From: a phage
Length of the DNA stretch: 64,000 nucleotides
Sequence record: OZ346187.1
Reading direction: 5' to 3' (one strand)
Shown piece by piece: positions 1,174 to 61,555 of the stretch. Both the position numbers and the translations under genes were made by a program. The notes beneath the pieces were generated by a model. The model saw only the letters and a list, made by a program, of their open reading frames with translations. It did not search any database and was not told where the DNA came from. The stretch's first letter is position 1. Each line of letters begins with the position of its first letter.

Positions 1174-1938
1174 TTGAAATTCATCTACAAAGAACACTAC
1201 CACAAAGGTGTTGTGTGGAGTCTATTTGACGGGTCTGGTGGTGCAGTTATTGACTGGGCAAAAGCTGGGTACCTGTGCCTGTGCTTTAATGCAGAAGGTG
1301 CTGACCACGGCAGTTATGCAGAGGTGATAACCGATCATCCTAACATTCACTATGTGGATTATTGGATTGACCCATGGTTCCCTCAGGAAACTTTTTGCAT
1401 GTATCCAGCTCCAGACTTTATTCTTGCATTTCCTCCGTGCACGCATTTAGCGGTATCAGGTGCTGCACATTTTAAGAAAAAGCTGGCTAAGGATCCTTTG
1501 ATCCAAATTAATGCTGTAAAGGATGCTCGGGTTGCGGAAGAGTTGGGAGAGATTTACGATTGCCCGTGGCATGTAGAGAATCCTGTAGGGGTTATGTCCA
1601 CACTGTGGCGAAAACCTGATTACCGTTTTCATCCTTCGGATTATGGTGGGTATTTACCGGAGGATGATGTAAACCCCTGGTTTCCTGAATTTATAGCTCC
1701 ACGTGATGCCTACCCAAAAATAACTTGCGGCTGGATAGGCAATGGATTTATAATCCCGGCCACAAAACCTGTCCCGCAAATAGTTGACGCGGTTAGCGGG
1801 TATTCCATGCAACACGCCAAGCTGGGTGGAAAGAGTGCAAGAACGAAGATGATCCGAAGCCTCACGCCACGTGGCTGGGCAAAAGCCGTATTCTTAGCAA
1901 ACGAGCCTGTAGTAAGGAGCAGAATTAATGGGAAGTAA
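1174..1938 (+). CDS. divergent C5-cytosine methyltransferase-like protein
   Basis: Motifs in canonical order: FDGSGG (motif I FxGxGG), FPPCTHLAVSG (motif IV PC-), WHVENPVG (motif VI ENV); probable TTG start after AGGAGA RBS (ORF-track start 1144 lies inside the terminator hairpin). Confidence 0.45.
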   Translation: MKFIYKEHYHKGVVWSLFDGSGGAVIDWAKAGYLCLCFNAEGADHGSYAEVITDHPNIHYVDYWIDPWFPQETFCMYPAPDFILAFPPCTHLAVSGAAHFKKKLAKDPLIQINAVKDARVAEELGEIYDCPWHVENPVGVMSTLWRKPDYRFHPSDYGGYLPEDDVNPWFPEFIAPRDAYPKITCGWIGNGFIIPATKPVPQIVDAVSGYSMQHAKLGGKSARTKMIRSLTPRGWAKAVFLANEPVVRSRINGK

Positions 1939-4006
1939 ATTTATGGCATCTGCATACAACCGTTTCGGTGAGCCAAACCCGAAAGCAATTAAGTATAAAA
2001 GTGGGGGAAGTGTGAAACGAGACTATCGTGATGAAAAAGAGGTTGAAACTGTAGAGACTGTTTTAGAAAATACTAAAATCGTCCCTGTCCCACAACAAAA
2101 TATCGGTCTGATGGCTGCACAATATTTTGGTGTGCGATCAGCATTGTCCCAAGAAGACGGTGTGACAGTCACTGCAACATATTTCCCATATTACGACCGA
2201 TACGGAAATCTGTCCGGTTTCAAAAAGCGTGACTGGACTATTCCTAAAGAACAAAGGGGCCACTTCTCCGTTGTTGGCATAGTAAAGGCCAACTCCCAGA
2301 TGTTTGGTCAAAAGCTGTGTGCATCTTCCAACAACCGTAAGCAGATTAACGTTTGTGAGGGAGAAGGTGATGTTATTGCAGCATGGCAGGCTGCATATCA
2401 GATACAAGTAAAAGGGATTCTCACCAACGCTAAAGCCCCGGCAAAGGTGAAGCAGTGGGCTAAAGAGGTCCAGGACGGGATCGACGCAGTTATCAACGGT
2501 GGTGATCTGGCAGGAAAACCCTGCCTGCCTTTTGTTGGAATTAACTGTGGATGTGCAAACGCAGTAGATACTTTTGCAAACAATGAGAAGTTTATCCGTA
2601 GCTATGGAACAGTTGTGCTGGCAATGGATAACGATGCAGCTAACGAGGTAGAGAAGCAAAAACACGTCATTAAAGGTGTTGAGGCCACGCACAATATCGC
2701 AGCATTTTTGATGGCTGATAACGTTTACCACGTAGAATACCCTGGTGAAGTAAATGACCCTGACGGGGTAAAAGATATCCGTGACATGCTGAAGGCTAAA
2801 AAGCTGGAAGATATTGTCAACATGTTCCGGCACCCTGTTAAATATGTGCCTGATGCTGTGTCGGATTTAGAAGACTTCTCTATCGAGTCTTTGCGGAAAA
2901 AGACTTCCAACGGGGTAGATATCAGCGCAGAGTTCCCAAAACTGCAAAAAATGCTAAAAGGCTTGCACAAAGGGACACTCGTAATGCTTACAGGGCCATC
3001 AGGGGGCGGTAAAACAACTGTAGCTAAAAAACTGGAACATTGTATTGCAAGATACCTAATGGACCCGACATGCCCGAAGGCTGATGACTATGAAGAGGAT
3101 GATCGTCTATGTATGATCCATCTTGAGGAGGACCCAGAGGAAGCAATTAACTCCTTGTATGCAAACCAGTTAGGGTTTGATGTTAAAGAGTTTGTTGAAG
3201 ATCCTAGCCAGTTTTTAACTGATCAAGAACACGCAGAGATTCACCAATCATGGGCAAAAGCTGGAAAAATCAAAGTGTTCAAACATTTCGGATCTATTCC
3301 GGTGGACGAGTTGATTACCAAGCTTAAGCAAATGGTTTGCCTGTACCATTGCCGTTATATTGTGCTGGATCACCTATCCATGGTAATTTCAGGGCTTAAT
3401 GTTAAGGATGAGCGAAAAGAACTGGACATGGCTATGACTCAGCTGGCTGCGTTTTGTAAGCAGTTTAACGTGTTTATCTTGGTGATCGCTCACCTCAAAC
3501 GTACAGAGATTGTGCCTCCTAAGGACAAGGATGGTAACCCGTTACCTTTCTGGTATCCTGTGCGAAAAGAGAATTTGCGAGGATCGGCGGGGCTTGAACA
3601 GTTGAGTTGGGTAGTCATAGGTGTCGAGGCCGAAGAAATGGTGGATCGTTCTCGTGGACGTGTCCGTCTGGTAGGTCTTAAAAACCGTCCAGCAAAAACT
3701 CTAGGTATTGCTGACACTTTGGTTATGGACCCGCACACAGGTAAGTTCCATGATGCCAGTAATTGGTACTGGGACAAAGAAATGCAAATGTTTACAGACG
3801 GAGAAGGTGGGGAGGTTGTTTGGAGACCTCAGGCTATGTTTGAGGATCAGGAGCATGCAGTTGTAGAAACACCTATGGGCAAGGTTGTGGCTGATAAGGT
3901 TGTAACTCCTACTGTTAAGCCTGTTGACACGCAGGAAGACCTCCAGTACGATGATCCATCCTCTGACCCGGTCCCTGGTTTTGAGGATGATGAAACGCCT
4001 TTTTAA
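1928..4006 (+). CDS. DNA primase-helicase (TOPRIM + DnaB-like helicase)
   Basis: TOPRIM-like NVCEGEGD; Walker A LTGPSGGGKTT; DnaB-like CRYIVLDHLSM; acidic C-terminal tail ending DDETPF. Confidence 0.8.
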   Translation: MGSKFMASAYNRFGEPNPKAIKYKSGGSVKRDYRDEKEVETVETVLENTKIVPVPQQNIGLMAAQYFGVRSALSQEDGVTVTATYFPYYDRYGNLSGFKKRDWTIPKEQRGHFSVVGIVKANSQMFGQKLCASSNNRKQINVCEGEGDVIAAWQAAYQIQVKGILTNAKAPAKVKQWAKEVQDGIDAVINGGDLAGKPCLPFVGINCGCANAVDTFANNEKFIRSYGTVVLAMDNDAANEVEKQKHVIKGVEATHNIAAFLMADNVYHVEYPGEVNDPDGVKDIRDMLKAKKLEDIVNMFRHPVKYVPDAVSDLEDFSIESLRKKTSNGVDISAEFPKLQKMLKGLHKGTLVMLTGPSGGGKTTVAKKLEHCIARYLMDPTCPKADDYEEDDRLCMIHLEEDPEEAINSLYANQLGFDVKEFVEDPSQFLTDQEHAEIHQSWAKAGKIKVFKHFGSIPVDELITKLKQMVCLYHCRYIVLDHLSMVISGLNVKDERKELDMAMTQLAAFCKQFNVFILVIAHLKRTEIVPPKDKDGNPLPFWYPVRKENLRGSAGLEQLSWVVIGVEAEEMVDRSRGRVRLVGLKNRPAKTLGIADTLVMDPHTGKFHDASNWYWDKEMQMFTDGEGGEVVWRPQAMFEDQEHAVVETPMGKVVADKVVTPTVKPVDTQEDLQYDDPSSDPVPGFEDDETPF

Positions 4007-4068: not shown

Positions 4069-7000
4069 ATGAGTATGTGGAATTTTGACTTTGAGGCCTC
4101 AGGTCTTCTGGACGAGGAAGATCTTTACTACCATTGTGGCCTGTTTAAAGAGTTGAATAAAAATAATTTTATGTTGTTTTTGCCTATCAATGATAGATCT
4201 CATTACAGTGAAGAGGAGGTTGAAAAAGCAAAACAATTTATGCTGGCAAAGCAAGATATCTATCCTAGCTGCTCTGTCCGTATTGCGGATTTCAGCCAGC
4301 TTGAATGGTGGTTAACCGGGAACTCCGATTGGTCACCCACATCATTAAGTTGTCACAACTGTTTTAGTTATGACTTTATCTTGATGGAGAAGCTGTCTGG
4401 TATTCATTTTGATATGTTCCGTGATCCCAAGTGTATGGGGACAATCAATAATCATCAGGTGAACCTGTTCGACACTCTGCCAATGAGTCGTATACTATGG
4501 CCCGACAGACCGTTACCTAAAGGATGCCCTGATTCTGTATACAATCCTGTTACAAAACGTATGCAGCAGGTAGGTCCTCATGGCCTAATGGCGTGGGGGT
4601 ACGCTTTAGGAAACCAGAAGGTTAAAATTGATGACTGGAGAAATTTACCTCTGTGGAAGTATGTTGATCGTGTATTCGAGGACGTTATCATCCAGGAGCT
4701 GCTCTGGAAAGAGCTGGTAGCGGAATCAAAAGGTGTATTCTACGGCAAATCTGACATGCAGAACTTTATGTACGATCCAGCCAAAGAGAAGCCGAAAGGG
4801 TTCAAGAAGATTACCTGGAAGAATGCATTACGCCGAGGCATGCTGCAGCACTTCCTGATGGAGCTGCAGGCCCGTCAGGGTGTATACTTCGACATAGATG
4901 GAGCTATTGCTTTACGTGACCGTTGCGATGCGTGGATGAAAGAAATCGCTGATCGTGTTGAACCACAACTACCTTTAAAAGAGCTGTCAATGTCTCAGCG
5001 GCCCAAGTTCCCTGAAAAGCCGTTTAACCAAGACGGGACAATCTCTAATAATGGTTGGAAATGGTTAAAAGATAAGCTTGGCTATCCTGTAGACATGAGT
5101 GCTTTAGAGTTCAAAGCCCCGCCTAAGCGAGCATTTACCTCTACAGGAGATGTCAGCAAGATGGGGATAAAATGGTGTGAAGAGATGGGCTGCAAAGACC
5201 CCGATAAGATGGCTGATTTCTTGAGAGGCTATATTAAGGGCACCTCCACACCACAACCCTTACCTAAAGAGCTGATGGATCAGGCAATAAGTGATCTGCA
5301 GCAGAAGCGAATGCCTGACTGCAAGATACCTATGAAAATCAGCAATCAGGACGACATCAAGCGATACCTAATCAGTGCTGGTTGGCTCCCAACAATGTGG
5401 AGAACTAAAGATGTAACTAAAGACAGCAAGAAGAAAGCTTTACCTGATGCAGATGTTGATGCACGAGTATATGCATATATGGACGAGCTTTTGGAGTCAG
5501 AGTATTGTGACCTAATTATCAACTTCTGGAACAAAACTGATGCTAAGTTCCAGACAACCGTGCACAAGTTCCGAAGCTTTCCTAACTCCGAAAGGATTAA
5601 AAAGGAAGTATTCGGGAAAATACGTAGAAAAGCCAGGGCACTTATTACTTCTCCGCAACTGAAAGATACGTTTGGACACCTATGCCCAAATCTTGAAAAA
5701 TTGAACGGAGAGATGGCTAAAGATATCGTCTTGTGGTTATCATTGCGAAACCGCAGATCGGTCCTTGATCCAATCAAGGAGGATAAGGTTGATACTGGTC
5801 TTCTTAATCACCCACGTTTGAAGATTGACCATAAGCTTCCTGCTAAAAGCTCTGGATTAACAAACACTTCCAGACAGAAACACAGTATTTGTGCAAACAT
5901 GCCTAAACCATCTCCTAAAGTGGTTATGGGTAAAGAGATGCGTAGTCTGTGGGGTGTTCCTCCGGGATACTTTGAGATCGGTATTGACGGGTCCAACTTA
6001 GAGCAGCTTATCGGGGCTTGGGGTGCCTTTGAGTTCGACAACGGCCTGTATTATGATGTTGTAAGTAATGGCGATGCACACTGTTATTCAGGAGATACAC
6101 AAATTCTCACGGAGAAAGGGTGGGTGAGGTTTGAAGATCTTGATCCGGGAACACAAGTGTTCCAGTACGATCACAACACCTCGTCAATGAACCTTGTTAC
6201 TCCATTAAATTACGTTAAGCGTAGTTATTGTGGGGATATGTATCATTTCCACAACAGTAGTGTGGATTTTATGGTTACAGATCAACACAGGATGCTGACT
6301 GTGGATCACAGAAGCAATAAATTGTTTGAAGATTTGGCAAAAGACCTGAAAGCAGGTAAAGGGTCTAATTCAGGAAGAAGGTTTATCCATGCGGCAGAGT
6401 TTTATGGGAATACAACCTTATCTCCTGCCCAGGTTAATTTGCTTATTGCTATTCACGATGATGGGCACTTGCATACAAATAAGGACGGCAGCATCGTGTG
6501 CAGGATTCAGGTCGGAAAGGGAAGAAAAGTTGCAACGCTTTTAGATACTTTTTCTGCTCTAAGCCTTAGTTATGTAGAGCAGAGCGGGAAAACCACAAAA
6601 GGGGGCTTACTGGCGAGAAGGTTCCAATTCCACGTTCCGTCCTGGGTATTTGAGTTTTTGGACAACAATAAGGATTTCACCTATAACCTGATGAACCTTG
6701 ATAAAGAATCTAAAAACCTGTTTATAGCTTCTTTATCTAACTGGGACGGGTGGGTATCTTCCGAAGGTGGAAAGGTTGCTTACTACTCCCAGGCCGAGTG
6801 CAGGAAGAAATCTGTAGAGGTGGTGTCTGCGCTGGCTACTCAGTGTGGTTTACGGAATAATACGGTGGCGATTCACAAAAAAGGTCGTGCCGTGCAGCAC
6901 AGAATCACAATTGGTAGCAAACAGAGAGCAGGGTTGCTGACACTATCTAAAGAGTCTGTCGAGGTGAGCGGTTCTTTGGTTTATTGCGTTACCGTCCCTT

Positions 7001-7401
7001 CTGGAGCAATCATTGTGAGAAGGAATGGTAAAGTGGCAGTGTGCGGTAACTGTAATAACGCCAAAGCTTACTCTTCTGTAGCAGGCAAGGAGATTTCCCG
7101 TAACGATGGTAAACCTATCACGTATGGGGTTATGTATGGGGCACAAAAAGATAAAGTTGCAGATATGCTGGACATCTCCCCAGAGTTGGGACAAAGGGTA
7201 ATCGATGCACTCTGGGATGCCAACCCAGGTCTTAAGGGGCGCAAAGAGGATCTGGAGAAATTCTGGGAAGCAACAGGTAAGAAGTTTATCTACTCTTTTG
7301 ATGGTCATGCTATCTGGACCCGATCTAAACACTCTTTACTTAATGCATACCAACAAAATGGCGGTGCATCGTTGTGTGACTTAGTTGGAATACTCATGCA
7401 C
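4069..7401 (+). CDS. DNA polymerase, family A, exon 1 (contains an in-frame intein; ORF reads through to a stop at 7467 inside the intron)
   Basis: 3'-5' exo motifs FDFEASGL (Exo I) and CHNCFSYDF (Exo II); motif B-like RNDGKPITYGVMYGAQ; ORF ends ...GILMH just before the expected HDE of motif C. Confidence 0.85.
6082..7050 (+). mobile_element. intein with LAGLIDADG homing-endonuclease domain inside DNA polymerase
   Basis: Starts CYSGDTQILTEKG (intein block A), TDQHRML (block B TxxH), LAGLIDADG-like LLIAIHDDGH and LFIASLSNWDGW, ends ...VAVCGN followed by Cys (+1). Confidence 0.65.
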
Positions 7402-7737
7402 CACCAGATGGTGAAGCGTGGGTGGTACGATGAAGGTGTTCGTCGTATTATTTATTACCATAAATAACATTGTGGCTTCATAGAGTAATCTATGTCGAAT
7501 AACCTCTTTAACTGCGGGAAGCCTAAACCTTATGGCAAGGTAATCCGCAACGAAGCGCTCAAAAGAGCGAACGCTCAGAGGCCATTCCGAAAGGAAGTAG
7601 ACCAGCAAGTGCGGTCGAAATGGGAGGATTCCTGTGGTTGCTTATCATAGGAATATGAGATGGTCCGATCCTACGTGAAAACGTATGGCTATGCACGTAA
7701 TGGTGCGGGGTAGCTTAACGACCTACCTGAACTATTG
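7402..7737 (+). mobile_element. group I intron without ORF, interrupting DNA polymerase at motif C (boundaries approximate)
   Basis: P-like AACTGCGGGAAG, Q-like AATCCGCAAC, R-like CTCAGAGGCCA, S-like AGATGGTCCGATCC; joining exons gives ...ILMH-DEYQLQV. Confidence 0.6.
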
Positions 7738-8091
7738 GATGAGTACCAACTTCAAGTGCCTGACACACCGAAGTATAAGACTGTGTACACCTTCGACACA
7801 ATTGAAGAACTGGAAGCATTTAAGGCAGAGCAGGAAGCCAAACTTCATGTGTTCGACGGTCATAAGTACAAAAAGGCACGCAAGGATGAGGACGGAAACG
7901 AAGTGGTTGACAGAGACGGAAACACGGTGTACGATCCTATCCTGAACGATGACGGAAAGCTTGAACTTATCTGGAGCCCTGTGGGTGAAATGGTGGTACA
8001 TTGCTTCTGGCAAGCTTCTAAAATGATGGGAGTCCCGTTCCAGATCACAGGTGAATACTTGTGTGGTCGTAATTGGGGTGATTGTCACTAA
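7738..8091 (+). CDS. DNA polymerase, family A, exon 2 (C-terminal part)
   Basis: Begins DEYQLQV (completes motif C HDE) and ends GRNWGDCH, the conserved C-terminal His of family-A polymerases. Confidence 0.7.
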   Translation, partial: DEYQLQVPDTPKYKTVYTFDTIEELEAFKAEQEAKLHVFDGHKYKKARKDEDGNEVVDRDGNTVYDPILNDDGKLELIWSPVGEMVVHCFWQASKMMGVPFQITGEYLCGRNWGDCH

Positions 8092-35349: not shown

Positions 35350-36146
35350 CTGTCTCCTCCCTGTGTTTCCACAGGGCCAGACTATCTATTACTCTACTTC
35401 AATAAGATAATAACCCTTTATTGTGAGATGCTTACCTTCGGCATTTCCTTCGATAGCCCTGTGAACGTTACCTACGTTCAAATTTAAGGCTTTTGCACAG
35501 GCGTAGAGTGAAGGATATTCACCCACCAAGATTTTCCCTTTGTATGCCTGCACTTTCCTATAGCACTTACCTGGACAAAGTCCTGTTCGGAAAGCATGTC
35601 TCTTATTATCTTCCGGCAAAACCCACTCTAGGTTAGACGGATGATCATTCAATGTATTGCCATCTTTATGATTCACTTCCCAGTTTTCAGGGTCTTCTGG
35701 GACATCTGGCAAACAATACAAGGCAACAACCCTTGAGGTTTGGATTCGAATCTTTTTACCTTTGTGGTTGAAAGAGTACATATAACGGCGTTTAACATGC
35801 TTATTACCTTTTCCATAACCTCCCCACAATATTGGGTGCAGCATTCCACGTTTTCCGTATACGTTTCCAACTTCATCAATCACATAGTTTGATTCTTCAC
35901 CATTAAGAATGATCTTTTTCATAGAGCCTCTCCATTTCGAAGTTAGTATTTCAACTAACCCCTACACTACTTGGTTCAGAAATGTTTGTCAAGCATCTCT
36001 GCCTTTCGTTAGTCGTTACAACCGTTCCAACTCCTGTAAGAACTAGTCACGGGATTGGCATAGCTTTCGCCTTAGCGTTCCCCGTTAGCCGGATTTACCG
36101 ACCCCTCTTATGAGGTTAGGAGAGTTTTACAACGGCCAGTTTGTTA
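35350..36146 (-). mobile_element. group I intron in nrdD carrying an HNH homing-endonuclease ORF
   Basis: 5' exon ends GGU, intron starts UAA; ACGGGGAAC and CAAUCCCGUG elements as in the T4 td/nrdD introns; S-like UAGAUAGUCUGG at the ORF stop; intron ends in G before CAG. Confidence 0.8.
35389..35922 (-). CDS. HNH homing endonuclease (intron-encoded)
   Basis: EVNHKDGNTLNDHPSNLEWV...NKRHA HNH motif; lies entirely inside the nrdD intron. Confidence 0.75.
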   Translation of the reverse strand: MKKIILNGEESNYVIDEVGNVYGKRGMLHPILWGGYGKGNKHVKRRYMYSFNHKGKKIRIQTSRVVALYCLPDVPEDPENWEVNHKDGNTLNDHPSNLEWVLPEDNKRHAFRTGLCPGKCYRKVQAYKGKILVGEYPSLYACAKALNLNVGNVHRAIEGNAEGKHLTIKGYYLIEVE

Positions 36147-60742: not shown

Positions 60743-60817
60743 GCCCTGTTAGCTTAGTGGATAAAGCAGCGGCCTTCTAAGCCGTTGACACTGGTTCGAG
60801 TCCAGTACGGGGTGCCA
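60743..60817 (+). tRNA. tRNA-Arg (anticodon TCT), CCA encoded
   Basis: Cloverleaf: acceptor GCCCTGT/ACGGGGT, D-arm GCTT..AAGC, anticodon loop CTTCTAA, T-arm ACTGG-TTCGAGT-CCAGT. Confidence 0.8.
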
Positions 60818-60821
60818 AATT

Positions 60822-60908
60822 GGGGAGTTATCCCGTAGAGGTAGCGGTGTAGACTGTAAATCTATTGTCATTGCGACTCGGGTGGTTCGACTCCACCACT
60901 CCCCACCA
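60822..60908 (+). tRNA. tRNA-Tyr (anticodon GTA), long variable arm, CCA encoded
   Basis: Acceptor GGGGAGT/ACTCCCC, anticodon arm GTAGA-CTGTAAA-TCTAT (GACUGUAAAUC as in E. coli tRNA-Tyr), T-arm GGTGG-TTCGACT-CCACC. Confidence 0.8.
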
Positions 60909-61022
60909 AATTTATATTTTTAGATGCATAAATAATACAGATAATGGCATTGATATTTATCGTCGTTTATACTAGTCACTAACTGCTCGAAAATCAGTGT
61001 CATTATCAGTATAATTTATAAA

Positions 61023-61113
61023 GGAGGGTAGGGAGCAATGGTGCTCAAGCGGTCTTGAAAACCGTCCCGTTGAGGATGACTCGATGATGGTTCGATTCCA
61101 TTACTCTCCGCCA
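61023..61113 (+). tRNA. tRNA-Ser (anticodon TGA), type II, CCA encoded
   Basis: Acceptor GGAGGGT/ACTCTCC, anticodon arm GCGGT-CTTGAAA-ACCGT, long variable arm, T-arm GATGG-TTCGATT-CCATT. Confidence 0.75.
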
Positions 61114-61211
61114 CATTGTTGACCTTGTAATTAAGCGAAAGCCGGAAGCAGAACCGGATTATCAAATGTTACAGTCGTCATCGCCGACTAGCAACATGGT
61201 CAACATACTGA

Positions 61212-61310
61212 GCTAGGTAAGCCCTTTGGCAAGGGCGAGGATTTTTAATCCTGAAAATAGACGAGGTAGTCGTTGAATACATAGGTGGTTCGATTCCATC
61301 ACCTAGCACC
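61212..61310 (+). tRNA. atypical tRNA-like gene (possible tRNA-Lys TTT with ~30-nt extra arm) or tRNA pseudogene
   Basis: Perfect acceptor GCTAGGT/ACCTAGC, D-arm GCCC-TTTGGCAA-GGGC, T-arm GGTGG-TTCGATT-CCATC, but 47 nt between D and T arms; loop TTTTTAA on a 4-bp stem. Confidence 0.4.
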
Positions 61311-61315
61311 TTTTT

Positions 61316-61391
61316 GCTGATGTAGCACAATCGGTAGTGCAATTGATTTGTAATCAATAGGTTGTAGGTTCAAGTCCTGCCATCAGCACCA
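61316..61391 (+). tRNA. tRNA-Thr (anticodon TGT), CCA encoded
   Basis: Acceptor GCTGATG/CATCAGC, D-arm GCAC..GTGC, anticodon arm ATTGA-TTTGTAA-TCAAT, T-arm GTAGG-TTCAAGT-CCTGC. Confidence 0.8.
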
Positions 61392-61392
61392 A

Positions 61393-61467
61393 GGCCCTGT
61401 AGCTGGAAGGTTCAAGCAAGCGACTCATAATCGCCAGACGGTGGTTCAATTCCACCCAGGGCCACCA
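61393..61467 (+). tRNA. tRNA-Met or Ile2 (anticodon CAT), elongator-type, CCA encoded
   Basis: Acceptor GGCCCTG/CAGGGCC with G1-C72 pair, anticodon loop CTCATAA, T-arm GGTGG-TTCAATT-CCACC. Confidence 0.75.
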
Positions 61468-61478
61468 AATAGTAAATA

Positions 61479-61555
61479 CTCCGCGTAGCTCAGCTTGGTA
61501 GAGCGCCTGATTTGGGATCAGGAGGTCGAGTGTTCGAATCACTCCGTGGAGACCA
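61479..61555 (+). tRNA. tRNA-Pro (anticodon TGG), CCA encoded
   Basis: Acceptor CTCCGCG/CGTGGAG, D-arm GCTC-AGCTTGGTA-GAGC, anticodon arm CCTGA-TTTGGGA-TCAGG, T-arm GAGTG-TTCGAAT-CACTC. Confidence 0.8.

Follow-up and report, generated by a model that had tools for sequence, protein, structure and literature searches.

Group I introns in phage family-A DNA polymerase genes have reportedly been known since SPO1 (1990), and an intron at the HDE motif is said to have been reported in T7-like phages by Bonocora and Shub in 2004. In Pol I, we take the HDE of motif C to be H881-D882-E883, with H881 as the His of QVHDE. In the T7-like phages ΦI and W31, self-splicing IA2 polymerase introns whose P6a contains an HNH ORF are reported at "site 881 (E. 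coli numbering)" (PMC3428280). Since H881 would be the motif C histidine, the ΦI/W31 site is most likely the same as that of the intron described here (YYH^DE, comparable to T7 H653^D654; carets mark insertion or splice sites), an equivalence that is based on the literature. Our intron is located in a 64-kb stretch of phage DNA (OZ346187.1, hereafter the window). The ΦI and W31 introns are like it in residing in a family-A polymerase gene, in being of the IA2 type and in having P7.1 and P7.2 joined by GUA. The sister alleles of phages SophiaRose and Mangalyan share the P6a location of the HNH ORF, whereas the window copy is without an ORF, and ΦI and W31 are podoviruses, of a different family from the window phage. 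The polymerase introns of SPO1, SP82, Bastille and Pf-WMP3 (I-HmuI, I-HmuII, I-BasI and I-PfoP3I) are found at site 674, in the finger subdomain (PMC3428280), in contrast to the motif C location in the window. Two candidates for further T7-like phages with an intron at HDE, obtained by tblastn with the HNH protein of the sister alleles, were rejected: Salmonella phage SI5 is P22-like, and the polymerase of Klebsiella phage Roth32 is split elsewhere.

In Pectobacterium phage CB7 (Certrevirus, Vequintavirinae), the intron CB7_50, flanked by CB7_51 and CB7_49, splices in vivo, as determined by RT-PCR and Sanger sequencing (PMC7344957). CB7_50 occupies the same site as the window intron (RRIIYYH^DEYQLEV) and has the same P1 and guide and homologous 5' and 3' parts of the ribozyme, although the two introns are only ~75% identical over these conserved parts. 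It is 687 nt long and encodes an HNH endonuclease, and, compared to the window copy, which is ORF-less, its P5 is extended and its P6 is different.

The window intron itself is already known and ordinary, the same intron and junction being annotated in public phage genomes. In rV5 (NC_011041), LL12 (MH491969) and MaxTheCat/Bas57 (MZ501094), the intron is identical to that of the window over 276/276 nt and at the same site, while the flanking exons differ by 2.7–4.8%; all three phages are without the upstream intein of the window. The LL12 polymerase CDS in GenBank is a two-piece join with the remark "intron-interrupted gene", and the genome announcement describes the DNA polymerase gene as "disrupted by predicted intron sequences" (PMC6658697). 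The polymerase of MaxTheCat, the closest relative of the window (98.8% identity), is also a two-piece join, and the BASEL paper set intron and intein boundaries by comparative genomics (PMC8594841). In the rV5 paper, the terminase introns are the only introns discussed (PMC3606486). The rV5 RefSeq record leaves the intron unannotated and gives the two polymerase exons as separate genes. Mechanical ORF calling places ORFs at 7492–7650 (+) and 7685–7945 (+, straddling the 3' splice site) of the window; their rV5 equivalents (L001 3956–4114 and 4149–4409) are the hypothetical proteins gp222 and gp221, which look like annotation artefacts of the unrecognised intron. As the exact intron was already annotated in LL12 (2019) and in the BASEL phage MaxTheCat (2021), the scientific gain is small. 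The value is a practical one: two polymerase fragments and spurious hypothetical proteins are still listed in many Vequintavirus records, among them that of rV5, the RefSeq type genome, and the exact coordinates and junction would correct their annotation.

The window derives from a Vequintavirus, an rV5-like coliphage (myovirus). Megablast of 4069–8091 against phage genomes gave 134 records, mostly Escherichia Vequintavirus, at 90–99% identity. A primase/helicase gene (1928–4006) is located upstream of ORF 4069–7467, which encodes a T7-like family-A DNA polymerase. A stop codon at 7465–7467 ends the polymerase frame, which is continued on the same strand by DEYQLQV...GRNWGDCH (7738–8088), as the earlier note on this DNA had described. 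We conclude, with a probability of about 0.93, that 7462–7737 is an IA2-type group I intron, 276 nt long and without an endonuclease gene, which interrupts this T7-like (family A) polymerase at the HDE motif. The earlier note had likewise proposed an ORF-less group I intron in motif C, for which the Rfam match, the covariation, the empty alleles and the RT-PCR of the CB7 homolog described here provide support, and had suggested a covariance-model scan. Such a scan of the whole window matched RF00028 (group I intron) at 7452–7687 on the + strand, over the full model (1–253), with 64.7 bits (gathering score, 50) and E=4e-14. Apart from tRNAs, this is the sole Rfam match in the window at gathering thresholds, and as it exceeds the threshold, a group I ribozyme is truly present in the gap. 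The intron-less allele of phage NHEP1 (L006) gave no RF00028 match. The features of the locus are collected in Table 1.

Table 1. Features of the interrupted polymerase gene in the window. Intron numbering starts at 7462 (1) and ends at the terminal G (276).
Feature	Position	Strand	Intron numbering	Sequence and evidence
DNA polymerase exon 1	4069..7461	+		ends ...RRIIYYH (CAT, T7461); ORF list, T7 alignment to His, contiguous in NHEP1; intein 6082-7050 inside
Group I intron, ORF-less, IA2-type as indicated by P7.1/P7.2 and GUA	7462..7737	+	1-276	starts AAAUAA, ends ...CUAUUG; RF00028; 276 nt absent in NHEP1 and in ~27/60 sampled Vequintavirus records
P1	7458..7475	+	exon CCAU + A1A2 with U9-G14; U(-1)·G11	exon CCAU + intron AA (7458-7463) with guide UUGUGG (7470-7475); six pairs invariant in 11/11 homologs
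P10 part of guide	7468..7471	+	C7-U10	CAUU; can pair with exon 2 GAUG (7738-7741), from sequence
P2 hairpin	7479..7494	+	18-22/29-33	CAUAG-AGUAAU-CUAUG; 5/5 pairs double-sided compensatory; 100% of cells paired
P3, 5' strand	7503..7508	+	42-47 (with 161-166)	CCUCUU; partner 7622-7627; 100% paired, 2 compensatory pairs
P4 around short P5	7513..7549	+	P4 52-57/83-88; P5 60-63/77-80	P4 UGCGGG/UCCGCA (classical P and Q elements), P5 GCCU/AGGU; 90.7% paired, in a MAFFT alignment with some rows off by one column
P6 hairpin	7556..7569	+	95-99/104-108, AAAA loop	CGCUC-AAAA-GAGCG; site where sister alleles hold the HNH ORF
P7, 5' strand (R element)	7580..7584	+	119-123 (with 200-204)	GGCCA; pseudoknot with P3; pairs with 7661-7665; 100% paired
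P7.1, GUA linker, P7.2	7585..7616	+	P7.1 124-127/132-135; GUA 136-138; P7.2 139-142/152-155	UUCC-GAAA-GGAA, GUA (7597-7599), GACC...GGUC; fold
P3, 3' strand	7622..7627	+	161-166	GGGAGG; covariation count
P8 hairpin	7628..7654	+	167-177/183-193	11 bp, loop UGCUU; 5/7 tested pairs compensatory; 94.7% of cells paired
P7, 3' strand (S element)	7661..7665	+	200-204	UGGUC; covariation count
P9, P9.1, P9.2 hairpins	7670..7728	+	P9 209-214/221-227; P9.1 232-235/242-245; P9.2 247-252/262-267	7670-7688, 7693-7706, 7708-7728; all 100% paired; 4, 1 and 3 compensatory pairs
Terminal guanosine (omega-G)	7737	+	276	G directly before GATGA in 12/12 homologous introns
DNA polymerase exon 2	7738..8091	+		DEYQLQV...GRNWGDCH + stop

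The secondary structure contains all the helices of a group I core. The P/Q/R/S-like elements that the earlier note had seen in the gap are present as P4 (UGCGGG/UCCGCA) and P7 (GGCCA/UGGUC). The splice-site pair in P1 is the canonical U·G (U7461·G7472), and a UG pair is found at this position in 11/11 homologs. RNAfold of 7456–7743 recovers every nested helix (P1, P2, P3–P6, P7.1/P7.2, P8 and P9–P9.2) with a minimum free energy of -88.4 kcal/mol; the corresponding z-score against dinucleotide shuffles of -2.75 is moderate taken alone. The IA2 assignment of phage polymerase introns rests on the presence of P7.1 and P7.2 joined by GUA (PMC3428280), and by this criterion, the predicted fold indicates that the window intron is of the IA2 type. 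The sequence GUAG is invariant in 11/11 sequences, and all cells of P7.2 pair (100%), one of its pairs being compensatory.

Conservation of this structure was assessed in a MAFFT alignment of 11 homologous introns, from which ORF-bearing P6 loops were trimmed, using the structure of the window sequence. Standard pairs account for 93.1% of the 726 cells, compared to 35–42% when the structure was slid by 1–3 columns, a control that is biased in favour of the structure since the latter came from a member of the alignment. The compensatory counts are free of this bias: both-sided changes occur in 32/68 pairs, compared to 2–9 in the slid controls. The covariation score is 0.425 versus at most 0.089 for the slid structures, and the observed values were reached in 0/500 shuffles. 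P2, P3, P7, P7.2, P9, P9.1 and P9.2 are completely paired, the P3/P7 pseudoknot included, and P7 changes from GGCCA/UGGUC to GACUA/UAGUC in a compensatory manner. Pairing is lower in P5 (44%) and P6 (53%) of the 11-sequence alignment, which we attribute to misalignment of these length-variable, ORF-trimmed regions; the P4/P5 of the CR9 type, for example, is off by one column.

The boundaries of the intron could be defined to the nucleotide. The last base of exon 1 is U (T7461) and that of the intron is G7737, which puts the insertion inside motif C, the catalytic HDE motif, directly after the His codon and before that of Asp, and joining T7461 to G7738 gives ...RRIIYYH^DEYQLQV... (product side ...CDLVGILMHHQMVKRGWYDEGVRRIIYYH^DEYQLQV...). 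The earlier note had located the 3' boundary (G7737^GAT) exactly, but placed the 5' boundary at ~7402, 60 nt upstream of the true site, which would give an intron of ~335 nt, an LMH-DEYQLQV join rather than IIYYH-DEYQLQV, and a 5' exon ending in a non-canonical C. The LMH junction also regenerates an H-D-E tripeptide, as the exon happens to read LMHH there. This placement is nonetheless almost certainly wrong, for the Rfam alignment and three independent further lines of evidence agree on T7461. Rfam places P1 at UACCAU^AAAUAACAUUGUGG, with CCAU^AA/UUGUGG and its U·G at 7461, and there is no P1 pairing at 7402. A phmmer search of PDB sequences with the spliced protein, along the lines of a comparison to an intron-less family-A polymerase that the earlier note had suggested, aligned T7 DNA polymerase straight through the junction (rriiyyHDEyql in the query, fayMAWVHDEIQV in T7, residues up to 658; YYH DEYQL compared to WVH DEIQV), which makes the break equivalent to T7 H653^D654. 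Twenty of the 21 codons that had been considered out of pattern (HQMVKRGWYDEGVRRIIYYH) align with T7 up to H653 and are true exon; AAA-TAA alone is intronic. These 60 nt are also present and in frame in the intron-less alleles. NHEP1 spans exactly 276 nt less than the window and has a single uninterrupted polymerase CDS, in which the counterparts of the 150 exon nucleotides on either side of the intron are contiguous (L006 3693^3694), with identical amino acids across the junction (RGWYDEGVRRIIYYHDEYQLQV). Finally, the LL12 polymerase spliced at the T7461-type junction is the 925-residue GenBank protein AXC42883.1, residue for residue, whereas the 905-residue product of the LMH^DEY junction is not on record. 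Different bases stand on the two sides of each boundary (T^A and G^G-A), which leaves no room for sliding, and with the 5' site at T7461, the concern over a non-U exon terminus disappears. The intron ends in G, and its excision restores the host reading frame: natural empty alleles are without exactly these 276 nt and have the frame intact.

It is also conceivable that the insertion is not spliced and that the polypeptides of exons 1 and 2 assemble, for which the NrdA of Aeromonas phage Aeh1, which is split, and the unspliced CB7_245 would be precedents. Two separate polymerase CDSs are listed in rV5 and many other records, a mechanical TTG start is available at 7735, and an HNH insertion in another gene of CB7 did not splice (PMC7344957). 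However, the break would separate the His from the Asp-Glu of the catalytic motif, the CB7 homolog at exactly the same site does splice, and the gene is uninterrupted in many relatives. Moreover, an intact core maintained by compensatory changes across genera would be unexplained if the RNA neither folded nor spliced, and we regard two separate polypeptides as very unlikely. An element that is a decayed, catalytically dead intron remnant could have lost its endonuclease ORF (or never possessed one), and P5 is indeed short compared to the sister introns. Yet every core helix is intact, as are the GUA linker, the U·G pair and the terminal G, and loss of splicing in a gene that is essential for replication would be lethal. 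The same 276 nt are found at 99% identity or more in at least 23 independent phage records, which argues equally against an assembly artefact, and either origin appears exceedingly improbable. The covariation, the empty alleles and the CB7 experiment speak against all three alternatives: the boundary at ~7402, the non-splicing split gene and the dead remnant.

Based on general group I intron chemistry, we infer that splicing in the phage of the window follows the standard two-step, guanosine-initiated pathway. The guide UUGUGG of the pre-mRNA would pair with the exon end CCAU^AA and present U7461·G as the 5' splice site, which would be attacked by an exogenous guanosine bound in P7. The guide would then hold exon 2 through P10 (GAUG), and the 3'-OH of U7461 would attack after G7737, ligating the exons (...TATTACCAT to GATGAGTAC...). 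The predicted junction of the spliced mRNA is ...CGTCGTATTATTTATTACCAT^GATGAGTACCAACTTCAAG..., the predicted full-length polymerase reads IIYYHDEYQLQV across it, and the predicted tryptic peptide spanning the junction covers IIYYHDEYQLQVPDTPK. The spliced mRNA would encode a continuous polymerase with motif C restored, from which the intein would still have to splice at the protein level. Unspliced RNA, in contrast, would terminate two codons into the intron (AAA TAA), yielding a polymerase without the Asp and Glu of HDE (T7 D654 and E655).

The intron is present at 99% identity or more in 23 or more phage records, rV5 among them, and diverged versions (66–86%) were identified by blastn in other Vequintavirinae and in Vibrio phages. 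All 12 fetched loci, except the intron-less NHEP1, contain an Rfam group I core. The same ...YH^DE... site is used in 11–12 other phages, which represent four named Vequintavirinae genera, an unclassified member of the subfamily and two Vibrio phages. The carriers are rV5, JEP1, JLBYU08, SophiaRose and Mangalyan (Vequintavirus), CB7 and CR9 (Certrevirus), SSE121 (Seunavirus), 18-1-2 (Avunavirus), phage A5-4, and Vibrio phages K412 and 10AMN. In every case, the 5' boundary reads TACCAT^AA(A/G/C)... and the 3' boundary ...TG^GATGA. We surveyed the junction with a 400-nt spliced probe in 60 records sampled evenly from 117; 27 are uninterrupted, 14 contain 276 nt and 2 contain 328 nt, and for the remaining 17, the insert is long or the match is not joined. 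Close relatives are polymorphic for the presence or absence of the intron at one site, which is one criterion for a mobile intron. The intron family is mobile and polymorphic in the genus, the site being empty or occupied by 276 nt, by 328 nt, or by an intron of ~842 nt whose P6 loop encodes an HNH homing endonuclease. Intron-less vequintaviruses include JeffSchatz and Murica. NHEP1 differs from the window by four synonymous changes at the start of exon 2 (12 nt, L006 3694–3705 and window 7738–7749; GACGAATATCAG versus GATGAGTACCAA), which could affect recognition by a homing endonuclease. The NHEP1 exons around the junction show no local excess of divergence over the general ~10% of this phage.

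The sister alleles of SophiaRose and Mangalyan are 842/843 nt long and contain a gene for a 168-residue HNH protein in an extended P6/P6a stem (ACUAAAGGGGUGUAGUU...AACUACACCUGGUAGU), with the stop codon of the ORF within the 3' strand. JEP1 and JLBYU08 (328/329 nt) have the same introns, in which a 14-nt P6 hairpin replaces the 528-nt segment. The 276-nt form represents a separate lineage, with ~69% identity to JLBYU08 and its own P5, P6, P7.1 and P8, and is therefore no simple ORF deletion of the HNH-bearing allele. No intron-encoded homing endonuclease is present in the window intron, as anticipated in the earlier note; its sole ORF encodes 52 residues (7492–7650). The idea that this ORF is what remains of an endonuclease was rejected, since the ORF has no Pfam match, overlaps the P2–P8 catalytic core and is absent from the sister introns. 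The window copy is not able to home alone. Elsewhere in the window, a free-standing 177-residue ORF (35389–35922, - strand) is ~48% identical over 48 residues (E=7e-6) to the intron HNH endonucleases of the sister phages and contains the motif ...NHKDGNTLNDHPSNLEW...; its product is probably a homing endonuclease. Free-standing HNH genes are also located directly downstream of polymerase exon 2 in 241Ecol014PP (L003 5544–6191) and in Vibrio phage K412 (L010 1994–2641). The polymerase intron is ORF-less in both phages, and the two HNH proteins appear unrelated to each other by eye.

The window intron has 0/276 differences to those of rV5, LL12 and 241Ecol014PP, while divergence in the 750 nt of exon next to it is 2.7–4.8%. 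At the exon rate (computed with 400-nt flanks), ~7–13 differences would be expected in the intron, and the Poisson probability of observing none is 6e-4 to 2e-6. An unchanged intron beside diverged exons is a well-known pattern for phage introns and fits recent lateral spread. Being ORF-less, the intron would need an endonuclease provided in trans, as in the collaborative homing that Zeng, Bonocora and Shub (cited in PMC3428280) suggested for psbA of cyanophages. The free-standing HNH genes beside the polymerase in 241Ecol014PP and K412 are compatible with such a process. Purifying selection, or strong constraint on the ribozyme alone, would also fit the identity of the introns. We therefore suggest only tentatively, as a possible but doubtful scenario, that the 276-nt intron may be no passive relic and may be spreading laterally among vequintaviruses by collaborative homing.

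The polymerase gene contains further insertions and insertion sites. An intein of 323 residues is encoded at 6082–7050 (+) in exon 1, after GDAH (CYSGDTQIL...VAVCGN, followed by Cys). rV5, LL12 and MaxTheCat are without exactly these 969 nt and have a Gln in place of the +1 Cys. The matches that support an N-terminal Hint domain are weak but consistent (Pfam Hint_2, E=7.5e-5; AceL NrdHF intein of the PDB, E=1.8e-4), and its central ~200 residues match no endonuclease family. The intein is found in 7/134 polymerase matches. A second group I intron site, in motif B, corresponds to 7128^7129 of the window (...ACGTATGGG^GTTATGTATGGG..., GKPITYG^VMYGAQ), where it is empty; it is occupied in CB7, whose polymerase gene has this second intron, and in SSE121 and Avunavirus 18-1-2. 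In these relatives, the intron, which often includes an HNH gene, follows TYG and precedes (I)MYGAQ. The polymerase gene, thus, represents a compact natural case of three sites for selfish elements (intein, motif B intron and motif C intron), with all occupancy states among sequenced relatives.

Rfam also identified a cluster of six tRNAs at 60743–61552 (+) of the window, two of which are near threshold (35.5 and 29.9 bits). About 15 "Campylobacter phage" records (MG065635–MG065690, host Campylobacter jejuni) are 93–100% identical to E. coli vequintaviruses over the polymerase and intron, which suggests that the host labels are wrong or that the data set is contaminated with coliphages.
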